From positions 1 through 64,000 of the IMG/VR virus record IMGVR_UViG_3300020394_000003: 64,000 nt of DNA; one strand, written 5' to 3'. Under the pieces are notes generated by a model. The model was not told the DNA's origin and ran no database searches. It worked only from the letters and a program-made list of their open reading frames with translations. How positions within the stretch are numbered: position 1 is the stretch's first letter; each line of letters starts with the position of its first letter. This stretch comes from a virus. Positions 5,578 to 27,437 of the stretch are shown piece by piece. The position numbers were made by a program, and so were the translations under genes.

Positions 5578-5675
5578 TGGGAGGTGGCGGAATTGGCAGA
5601 CGCGCCCGGTTGTTTCCCGGGTGGTGATAAGGCGACAAGCCCACCTTGGAGGTTCGAGCCCTCCCCTTCCAGCCA
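5578..5675 (+). tRNA. tRNA with GUU (Asn) anticodon and an atypical long variable arm
   Basis: Acceptor TGGGAGG/CCTTCCA, discriminator G, encoded CCA, anticodon stem CCCGG/CCGGG with loop TTGTTTC, 26-nt variable region, GGAGG-TTCGAGC-CCTCC T arm. Confidence 0.8.
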
Positions 5676-26126: not shown

Positions 26127-26468
26127 ATGTCAGGAAGGCAGAAGGGCAAGTACAGTAATTATTCTATCTCAAGATCACTAAAGATTGCAGGAAAATCTTC
26201 AGAAGAATTTGAGGTTATGCTGGGCCAATTAACGCTAGAAGAAATAATTGCATTAAAGCTTGAAATCTCAGCAAAAATGATCAATAATAAGTTATATGGG
26301 CTTGAGCTTTGGAAGGCAATCCCCAGAATCACAAAAGATGCTCTTTTAAAATTTGCGGTGTCAGCGGCGCAGACTCAACAAGATGCATGTAGAATACTAG
26401 GAATTAAGCCTGCTGAACTAAGAAAATTAAAAGATATTTACAATTTTGAAAATTATTTTGAAAAATAA
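26127..26468 (+). CDS. protein with a C-terminal Fis-like HTH
   Basis: TQQDACRILGIKPAELRK. Confidence 0.65.
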   Translation: MSGRQKGKYSNYSISRSLKIAGKSSEEFEVMLGQLTLEEIIALKLEISAKMINNKLYGLELWKAIPRITKDALLKFAVSAAQTQQDACRILGIKPAELRKLKDIYNFENYFEK

Positions 26469-26470
26469 GT

Positions 26471-26499
26471 TAGACAACTCAGGACACCTGTGCTATAAT
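26471..26499 (+). promoter_or_regulatory. sigma70-type promoter
   Basis: TAGACA-17nt-TATAAT with TG extension. Confidence 0.75.
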
Positions 26500-26568
26500 A
26501 GTTTCTATAAGCAGGAGCAGAAGCATGAACAAAAAATGTACTCCAGAGAGGTTTCTTTGAAGTACTAG

Positions 26569-26837
26569 AGAGTTGGCTTAGGTCGTCTATGCGTTTTGTT
26601 ATTTAGGTTCTAGGTCCGTATGAACCTTGCCGAATGCAATGAAATGGAGGATTCCCATTTAGAAGGGCGGCGAATTAAAATCGGGCTGGCATGGTGATGA
26701 GCGAGGAGATTCACCCGACCTACCAACTCTTGCCCCCACGCGCATACAAGATACGATAAGGGCACGTATTACTTAATGATATAATTGATAAAGATATAAA
26801 GTGACGGCAAAAAACACTAGGCATGCACCCTTCCTAG
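26569..26837 (+). ncRNA. candidate structured ncRNA of unknown class
   Basis: 15-bp closing helix 26569-26585/26716-26730, several internal hairpins, possible pseudoknot; no ORF in the track. Confidence 0.55.
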
Positions 26838-26855
26838 TTAAAAAAAGAGAATGAA

Positions 26856-27107
26856 ATGTGGCAGCTTTGGGAATGGAACGGAAGATATATACAGGGCAAT
26901 TTAGTAAGCAAGCACAAAACCGAAGCTGCCACTATTTCTAAAGCAAAAAAAGTACTAGGCGAAGATATAAGATTAACAAAAGAAGAAAAAAAGAAGGAAA
27001 CAATAATTTGGATTGATAGTTCTGAAGGAGTTCCAGTAGGGCTCATCAGAAAACCCAAGGGGGCGCAACGGCTTCGACAGGGTAAGAAAGAGAAAGAGTG
27101 CAAGTAG
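26856..27107 (+). CDS. hypothetical protein overlapping the tmRNA 5' end
   Basis: 83-aa ORF; last 49 nt lie inside the tmRNA. Confidence 0.55.
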   Translation: MWQLWEWNGRYIQGNLVSKHKTEAATISKAKKVLGEDIRLTKEEKKKETIIWIDSSEGVPVGLIRKPKGAQRLRQGKKEKECK

Positions 27108-27390
27108 GTTAGACACGACCTTAACAGTTCAAAAACAATAGTTGCAAATAACAACAACCACTTCGAACAGCGCTTAGCCGCTTAGTAGGGAGGCGGACTA
27201 GGGCCTTCTATCCAATCTAGTCAAAACAACAGATAAGTTGTAAAAATCAAAAAAACTTATCGCAACAGGATGGTAAGCGATATTTTATAACCATCTAGCT
27301 TTTCAGTTAGTGATTAAAACTGAATAAACTTGTGAACGACTTATATTGGACTTATTTTGGACGCGGGTTCGACTCCCGCCGCCTCCACCA
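27059..27390 (+). ncRNA. ssrA: tmRNA, tag ANNNNHFEQRLAA
   Basis: Acceptor GGGGGCG/CGCCTCC with G3-U70, ACCA end, GGCTTCGAC near the 5' end, GCGGG-TTCGACT-CCCGC T arm, tag ORF 27144-27185 ending LAA*. Confidence 0.95.
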
Positions 27391-27408: not shown

Positions 27409-27437
27409 TTGACTTAAGTGTTAAGATAAGTTATATT
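27409..27437 (+). promoter_or_regulatory. sigma70-type promoter
   Basis: TTGACT-17nt-TATATT. Confidence 0.65.

Follow-up and report, generated by a model that had tools for sequence, protein, structure and literature searches.

A putative phage-specific pseudoknotted RNA family at the head of the tmRNA unit in uncultured marine T4-like phages

The locus described here lies in the first 64 kb (64,000 nucleotides (nt), hereafter the window) of a 161.7-kb IMG/VR virus record, IMGVR_UViG_3300020394_000003, whose virus encodes a T4-type major capsid protein (Gp23 family). The stretch 26506-26855 is predicted to be the 5' leader of an early transcript carrying a small open reading frame (ORF) and a phage tmRNA, and the structured RNA element within this leader is the subject of the present analysis. 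The promoter, the RNA helices and the genes of the unit all lie on the + strand. A sigma-70-type promoter (26471-26499; TAGACA-17-TGcTATAAT) was the best sigma-70 match in the region (11/12), in agreement with the strong promoter placed there by an earlier note on this DNA, and transcription should start near 26506. It is followed by a leader ORF of 11 codons (26525-26560; MNKKCTPERFL, stop TGA) with a Shine-Dalgarno (SD) sequence, AGGAG (26513-17), 7 nt upstream. The small ORF (26856-27107; 83 amino acids (aa), MWQLWEWNGRYIQG...) overlaps with its last 49 nt the one-piece tmRNA gene (27059-27390; Rfam RF00023, 130 bits; also called by ARAGORN; tag ANNNNHFEQRLAA). Since the stop codon of the 83-aa ORF lies inside the tmRNA gene, cleavage by RNase P would leave an mRNA without a stop codon. 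No terminator-like site was found in the window between the promoter and the tmRNA, and no SmpB was found in the window virus. The reading frames of at least 30 aa overlapping 26505-26855 were a 40-aa frame on the + strand (26446-26568) and two frames on the minus strand (51 and 34 aa); the 11-codon ORF is too short for this frame list. The earlier note had proposed a multi-stem RNA with its own promoter ahead of the tmRNA. All the strings that it quoted, including the 11-codon ORF with its AGGAG, are present where it had placed them, and the proposal itself was borne out, as homologues exist and covary.

Close relatives of the element were collected through the 113-aa gene upstream (which led to L002), through the contigs of eight close protein clusters of the 83-aa ORF and by a metagenome pattern scan. 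They comprised nine distinct sequences, every one from metagenome contigs and several explicitly marine, which had the promoter, leader ORF, structured region, small ORF and tmRNA in common. For the wider family, IMG/VR was searched with alignments of the small ORF and of the 113-aa neighbour, a consensus was drawn up by manual dissection of about 30 copies, and a covariance model (R1) was built that spans P2 to P6 (helices described below) with the pseudoknot left out. R1 matched 42 copies in the fetched loci and more in a later scan. About 45 copies were obtained in total, from uncultured marine phage contigs. The window copy scored 88.6 bits (E 1.6e-19), and exactly one R1 copy was present in its own genome. 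We assign the core of the element (26567-26731), as judged from these comparisons, to a previously uncatalogued phage-specific family of pseudoknotted RNAs, for which we use the provisional name phage tmRNA-leader pseudoknot RNA. This is almost certainly a genuine new structured RNA family. The element is thus not unique to the window phage, in which it is an expanded member of a wider phage family.

The predicted family fold is a three-way junction in which P1 closes the domain, the P2 loop pairs with a strand 5' of a UAG-type motif and P6 stacks near P1. The pairing of the P2 loop would form an H-type pseudoknot, adjoined by an A-rich strand. The consensus order is P1 (7-18 base pairs (bp)), a variable linker, P2 with a loop of 10-12 nt, a variable middle of 4-90 nt, RUUR-AAR, a 6-mer complementary to the P2 loop, (C)UAGYRU, P6 and then P1' within 0-2 nt. 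The P6 loop is conserved and rich in purines, reading GGAGCGAGAGA or GYGAAGA, and the minimal form of the family is about 110-130 nt long. Membership was defined by P1, by P2 with its 10-12 nt loop, by a pseudoknot of 5-6 bp to the strand 5' of (C)UAGYRU, by P6 with a GYGAR loop abutting P1' and by a position after the 113-aa gene or a promoter. The window copy has all four helices (P1, P2, pseudoknot and P6) in the same context as the other copies.

In the window, P1 is a closing stem of 15-16 bp. Its 5' strand (26569-26585) consists of AGAGTTGG (26569-76), CT and TAGGTCG (26579-85) and pairs with CGACCTACCAACTCT at 26716-26730. P1 was found at the same place in nearly all 42 copies with entirely different sequences (8-18 bp, median 14 bp; median z -3.95 against a shuffled 3' strand); the sequence differs by lineage and is always paired, as in L002, which has CTGATCGGCTG/CAGTCGATCAG plus GAGGT/ACCTC. 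Hairpin P2 (26605-26627; AGGTTC 26605-10 with GAACCT 26622-27, loop TAGGTCCGTAT) is a family-wide helix showing compensatory changes at four of six pairs, with 91.5% of the alignment cells paired. The 5' strand of the core pseudoknot, GTCCG (26614-26618), lies in the P2 loop and pairs with CGGGC (26682-26686). All six of its pairs showed changes on both sides, and 89.7% of the cells were paired, with variants such as GTCTCT/AGAGGC, GTCTAC/GTAGGC, GACTCT/GGAGTC, GGCTC/GAGCC, GTTCGT/ACGAAC and GTCCG/CGGRC. As the core pseudoknot was left out of the search model, the alignment cannot have been fitted to it. The conserved junction (26673-26692; AATTAAAA-TCGGGC-TGGCAT) contains the A-rich run, the pseudoknot 3' strand (26682-86) and the motif (C)URGYRU before P6; it is invariant in the close relatives, and the pattern RUUR-AAR-[6-mer]-UAGYRU is kept family-wide. 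Hairpin P6 (26693-26715; GGTGA 26693-97 with TCACC 26711-15, loop TGAGCGAGGAGAT) abuts P1', has compensatory changes at 5/5 pairs and is paired in 99.5% of the cells, and its loop core GYGAR is kept in all subtypes.

Taken together in the R1 alignment, P2, P6 and the pseudoknot had standard pairs in 93.2% of the cells, compared with 67.1% for shuffled and 34-52% for slid partners, and both-side or compensatory changes were seen at 15 of the 17 pairs. The covariation score was 0.68 versus 0.20, and none of 500 shuffles scored as high. The transcribed strand is the + strand, as indicated by frequent G-U pairs. The comparisons show that the predicted RNA is real, conserved and strand-specific, and that it always stands at the head of its transcription unit. 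RNAalifold run on the raw MAFFT alignment missed P1, the strands of which were out of register, and proposed a helix GGnCUGG/CCnACC that was rejected because it clashes with P1 and does not covary.

The window copy is an expanded member of the family, to which P3/P4, a P7/H pseudoknot and a hairpin near the ribosome-binding site docking on the core are added. The expanded-form insertion (26629-26671) is placed between P2 and the pseudoknot strand and is missing from short family forms. It consists of P3 (GCCG 26629-32 with CGGC 26668-71), which encloses P4 (AAATGGA 26642-48 with TCCCATTT 26653-60), and of a strand GAAGGG (26662-67). A C-G pair of P3 is replaced by U-A in L055 and L002, and the outer part of P4, AAAT/ATTT, by CAA/TTG in L076. 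The AAATGG/CCATTT hairpin of the earlier note, within 26642-60, corresponds to P4; its TTGC/GCAA hairpin was not conserved, the covarying helix at that place being GCCG/CGGC. The second addition (26731-26769) follows P1 and consists of P7 (TGCCC 26731-35 with GGGCA 26760-64) and hairpin H (ATACG 26751-55 with CGTAT 26765-69). Both are compensated among the close relatives: P7 occurs as TGCCC/GGGCA, GCTCA/TGAGC, AGCTC/GAGCT, TGTCC/GGACA and TGCTTC/GGAGCA, and H as ATACG/CGTAT, GGATAT/ATATCC, GGTTG/CAACC and ATTATG/CGTAAT. As the P7 3' strand GGGCA sits in the loop of the covarying hairpin H, the region after P1 is read as an H-type pseudoknot. The stems P1, P2, P6 and TGCCC/GGGCA, all of which had been recognised in the earlier note, thus received strong covariation support. 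L055 has two tandem copies of the hairpin-H segment, GAGATGAGCAC(G/A)TATT, in the tail after P1' (about 700-800), and the 3' domain of the expanded form is therefore evolutionarily plastic.

The last hairpin (26817-26837; CTAGG 26817-21 with CCTAG 26833-37), also proposed previously, ends 18 nt before the ATG of the small ORF. Its loop sequence CCCTT(C) (CCCTT 26828-32) is complementary to (G)AAGGG (AAGGG 26663-67) in the inserted arm, a contact designated PK3. Stem, loop and PK3 target are invariant in the nine close relatives and compensated in the divergent relative L076, where the stem changes to GCCG/CGGC and PK3 from GAAGG/CCTTC to GTAGG/CCTAC; P6 (GGCGCA/TGCGTC) and the core pseudoknot (GTTCG/CGAAC) are likewise compensated in this relative. 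The P3/P4 arm of the core and this last hairpin are found together. PK3 (26663-67/26828-32) and the core pseudoknot (26614-18/26682-86) had both been missed in the earlier note and are better supported than the one it did propose, TATGCG (26588-26593) with CGCATA (26741-26746). That pairing, PK1, brings in a strand located between the helices P7 and H and was chosen by RNAalifold. It is possible and is kept as tentative, with one compensated change (L002) set against one uncompensated lineage (L064/L065) and 83% of the cells paired, in the expanded form only. The expanded form is predicted to have at least three long-range contacts. A further match, found in a complementarity check of the P6 loop and P1', of GCCCCC (26732-37) to GGGGGC of the tmRNA 5' end, occurred in the window only and was dropped.

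The promoter -35 and extended -10 are kept in all close relatives, and the leader ORF with its ribosome-binding site, noted previously, is also conserved among them. An in-frame ATG-to-TGA ORF with the same end point was present in seven of eight distinct close relatives. All expanded copies have an ATG-initiated leader ORF of 7-12 codons except L058, whose contig has about 1x coverage, and the encoded peptides end in E-x-F-[FLW] followed by TGA. In the window and the expanded copies, the stop codon lies about 6-8 nt 5' of P1. The last codons and the stop are held in hairpin P0 (26538-26565; GTACT..CAGAGA with TCTTTG..AGTAC), which is part of the minimum free energy fold and whose outer stem is compensated among the relatives (GTAC/GTAC, ACAC/GTGT, CACC/GGTG, GGC/GCC). 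Because these codons sit in a covarying hairpin, constraints on the RNA may partly explain the conservation of the leader peptide. Across the family, a mini-ORF of 1-12 codons with SD and ATG was found in 18/47 leaders compared with 5.4±2.1 in shuffles, a count inflated by relatedness, to which about eight or more lineages contribute.

Known RNA families were searched with Rfam 15 (4227 models, including RNase P, 6S, SRP, riboswitches, self-cleaving ribozymes, Y RNA/YrlA, GOLLD, ROOL, HEARO, raiA and EAR). At E<=10, the region 26300-27100 gave only the start of the tmRNA and two chance matches outside the element. The result of this Infernal check is in line with the inability of the earlier note to match the RNA to RNase P, 6S, SRP or known ribozymes. 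At the gathering score, the whole window gave tmRNA and tRNAs only, as did twenty other diverse copies. In other loci, the tmRNA_permuted model (RF04321) overlapped the element; this match came from the tmRNA 5' half, and the element was passed over as an unaligned insertion. The possibility that the element is part of the tmRNA (RF00023) was likewise dismissed, the tmRNA being complete and separate at 27059-27390. The glutamine riboswitch (glnA, RF01739, and Downstream-peptide, RF01704, with a GGAAGUAGG-type core) showed no match at E<=10, nor was it detected at the gathering score in the 20 loci. No description of such a motif was found in the literature available as open-access text.

The family appears to be confined to marine T4-like phages of an uncultured lineage. 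The window region and two other members, compared by blastn with 50,697 cultured phage records, returned the tmRNA 3' end only, or nothing, and tblastn of the 113-aa neighbour against the same records returned nothing. The prokaryotic genomes (185,579; 596 Gb) were scanned with two patterns. One had no match, and the other, a family-specific pattern with 26 matches in IMG/VR, had three; R1 confirmed none of the three sites; its one weak match, elsewhere in L178 (13.7 bits, E 0.028), was chance-like. The pattern AATTAAAATCGGNCTGGCA had a single match in viral contigs, a chance occurrence inside an integrase gene, and the 39 matches of GGTGANGAGCGAGGAGA were all due to chance, save for one already known relative.

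Throughout the family, the element was found in the sense orientation at the head of the unit, with one copy per genome. It follows directly after a sigma-70-type promoter or, in some loci, directly after the stop codon of the 113-aa gene, and in most members the promoter -35 TTGACA lies inside the last codons of that gene. The distance to what follows is 3-45 nt for tmRNA, 0-7 nt for tRNA-Gly and 12-40 nt for the ribosome-binding site of an ORF. The 113-aa gene (26127-26468 in the window) is conserved in at least 143 viral loci (also L094-L173). It precedes tmRNA or tRNA-Gly in many uncultured phage contigs, where a shorter RNA of the same design often fills the gap. The protein family of the 83-aa ORF is widespread in phages and comprises eight close clusters and 61 representatives at E<=0.001; in 18 of 25 viral loci (window, L066, L068, L070-L093), the ORF immediately precedes tmRNA. 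No Pfam or PDB match was obtained for the 83-aa protein, and searches of the flanking small proteins against Pfam, PHROGs and PDB gave nothing usable.

As to function, we favour, at a confidence just short of even, the view that the element acts in cis as a leader. Under this proposal, the folded or unfolded state of the element would set the amount of the downstream product; in the window, small-ORF translation and tmRNA yield or maturation would be affected. A ligand, a protein or a ribosome that completes the leader ORF 6-8 nt ahead of P1 might determine this state. The inserted P3/P4 arm would present GAAGGG to the loop of the hairpin just before the ribosome-binding site of the small ORF. 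The proposal is based on the invariable leader position, the PK3 contact that ties the core to the last hairpin, close to the ribosome-binding site, the leader ORF stopping near P1 and two precedents, namely the glutamine riboswitch linked to the phage ssrA gene in Melnitz (PMC9004378) and the reported FMN-responsive maturation of the Bacillus subtilis pre-tmRNA (PMC5876405). A number of observations speak against a cis-acting leader. No conserved alternative pairing was found that could serve as an expression platform, P1 leaves the ribosome-binding site uncovered, and U-rich tracts after P1' are mildly enriched (4.3 per 10 nt versus a base rate of 2.7) and are missing in the window. In more than half of the leaders of the family no mini-ORF with SD and ATG is present, and where there is one, its spacing from P1 varies between 6 and about 50 nt. 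The downstream partner varies between tmRNA, tRNA-Gly, a small MWQ/K ORF, a thioredoxin-like ORF (followed by the small ORF and then tmRNA) and a cytidylyltransferase-like ORF, which fits an independent module as well as a regulator, and in other phages the slot after the 113-aa gene holds a Flp-pilin-like ORF or nothing. Single-sequence folding of the window region gave a structure no more stable than shuffles (z -0.74) and was uninformative, so that the case for a structured RNA rests on the comparative data. Two particular mechanisms were rejected: P1 with a U-tract as a terminator, for which the enrichment is weak and missing in the window, and a leader-peptide transcription attenuator, for which the leader ORF with its SD is present, but neither a terminator-like site in the window nor an alternative pairing was found.

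The main rival to a cis-acting leader is a stand-alone non-coding RNA gene, whose product would be cut from the early transcript by RNase P at the 5' end of the tmRNA or tRNA, or by RNase E before an ORF, and might, for example, bind a host or phage protein. We consider this doubtful, though a serious contender. With P1 as its closing stem the domain is self-contained, in many loci 0-20 nt separate P1' from an RNase P site, and the strong SD with a mini-ORF near the 5' end could protect a stable RNA; the lack of a conserved expression platform, the changing identity of the downstream gene and the unrelated small genes that occupy the slot in other phages would also suit an RNA that works on its own. 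The tRNA cluster of phage T4 yields two stable RNAs of unknown function, which offers a parallel. Against release of this kind stand the window and ORF-linked copies, which have no terminator or obvious processing site before the downstream ribosome-binding site, the PK3 contact that wires the expanded form to the hairpin beside that site, and the constant occurrence of one sense copy per genome at the head of the unit. That position, whichever gene comes first in the stable-RNA cluster, would be expected of a processive antitermination or anti-Rho leader. Polymerase modified or shielded by the nascent RNA, alone or together with a ribosome on the mini-ORF, would then read through the extended tmRNA/tRNA cluster, which is strongly structured and for the most part not translated. 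The put RNAs of phage HK022 and the EAR element are processive antitermination RNAs, EAR resembles the element in size and pseudoknot content, and translated mini-ORFs would hinder Rho loading. We nevertheless regard antitermination as improbable: Rfam gave no put or EAR match, some copies head ordinary protein-coding genes, and direct evidence of downstream terminators was lacking.

A purely structural role would dispense with sensing altogether. The RNA would then be a passive leader, acting as a 5' stabiliser or folding aid against RNase E, or keeping the 5' strand of the tmRNA free until RNase P acts. Its 5'-proximal position, the SD-type 'stabiliser' sequences and the closeness to RNase P sites are compatible with such a role, for which, however, a simple hairpin would suffice; the nucleotides kept invariant in the junction and loops point instead, together with the covarying pseudoknot and the docking contacts, to a specific three-dimensional fold under selection, and we assign the passive leader a low probability. 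It is highly improbable that the element is a divergent member of a described RNA family missed by Rfam, such as a riboswitch class, a self-cleaving ribozyme, a Y RNA or RNase P. Covariance models can overlook remote or permuted members, and the literature was covered as open-access text; the window nonetheless gave no match to the element at E<=10, the 20 diverse copies gave none at the gathering score, and the only overlapping match, tmRNA_permuted, was explained by the tmRNA itself with the element as an insertion. To our knowledge, no family shares the architecture of P1, a pseudoknot from the P2 loop to the junction, and P6, together with its motifs. Rather unlikely, in our estimate, is the more specific proposal that the family represents either a new class of sensor RNA (a riboswitch, or a sensor of ribosome or translation state operating via the mini-ORF) that gates the phage tmRNA and small protein, or a phage RNA of a new kind, freed by RNase P, that acts as a ribozyme or sequesters a protein. 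For a riboswitch, which would call for an aptamer in a 5' leader with selective ligand binding and ligand-dependent expression, the comparisons provide a covarying, pseudoknotted leader domain; a conserved expression platform was looked for and not found.

The element can be compared with several described systems. Like the glutamine riboswitch (glnA motif) of the OM43 phage Melnitz and of pelagimyophages (PMC9004378), it is structured, pseudoknotted and placed with the tmRNA of marine T4-like myophages in an early unit. It differs from that riboswitch in being larger, in its fold and motifs, in the lack of a Rfam glnA or Downstream-peptide match and in the one-piece tmRNA of the window. The FMN-responsive tmRNA precursor of B. 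subtilis, identified with PARCEL (PMC5876405), is similar in that the precursor part, rather than the mature RNA, bears structure able to influence maturation. In that bacterial case no conserved motif is defined, and the ligand was identified by experiment.

Leader-peptide attenuators such as trp, pyrBI and erm share with the element a short SD-led ORF that stops a few nucleotides before a helix (6-7 nt in the expanded copies). Unlike them, the element has no alternating terminator and antiterminator hairpins or recognisable regulatory codons, the mini-ORF is missing or far from P1 in many members, and the downstream product is often a stable RNA. HK022 put and the Bacillus EAR are likewise promoter-proximal structured RNAs that work whatever gene follows, and EAR is of similar size and has a pseudoknot, but the element has neither sequence nor model similarity to them. 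A released form of the element would resemble the stable RNAs C and D of phage T4, which are small, are transcribed together with tRNAs and are freed by tRNA-processing enzymes. These RNAs lie inside the cluster, however, whereas the element stands at the head, and it showed no similarity to any cultured phage by blastn.

Phage-encoded tmRNAs are common in marine myophages. A conserved, complex and phage-restricted RNA fold at the head of a tmRNA/tRNA unit provides a handle on how phages regulate or exploit ribosome rescue, and a well-supported orphan RNA class is added that is suitable for ligand screening, structural work and Rfam deposition. The recurring SD and mini-ORF in the leader of a stable-RNA gene are unusual, as is a small ORF with its stop codon inside the tmRNA, and together they suggest that translation is linked to tmRNA biogenesis. 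If the element is a sensor, it could allow a T4-like phage to match ribosome rescue and protein tagging to the condition of the infected cell.

Several further features were observed around the unit and in related loci. Directly downstream of the tmRNA, the next genes are headed by a second good sigma-70-type promoter (27409-27437; TTGACT-17-TATATT), which suggests that the tmRNA unit is a short early transcript of its own. The C-terminal part of the 113-aa protein weakly resembles Fis/NtrC-type helix-turn-helix domains (PDB 4l5e, E 0.33 only). A Flp-pilin-like small ORF (..GATAIEYG..) occupies the same slot immediately upstream of tmRNA in L096, L116, L123, L126, L140 and L143. In seven otherwise divergent phages (L102, L128, L144, L148, L152, L164 and L166), a linker GWTCTTTWAAAAnTAT is found directly before the first G of the tmRNA, and it might be a leader signal for RNase P or RNase E, or a remnant of a T4-late-like promoter. 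Elsewhere in the window, the tRNA-Asn(GTT) gene at 5578-5675 is 98 nt long, about 22 nt over the usual length, and scores low with Rfam (40.8 bits); an insertion or intron may be present, and a tRNA-Asn of the same length is present in the related phage locus L073 (2131-2228).

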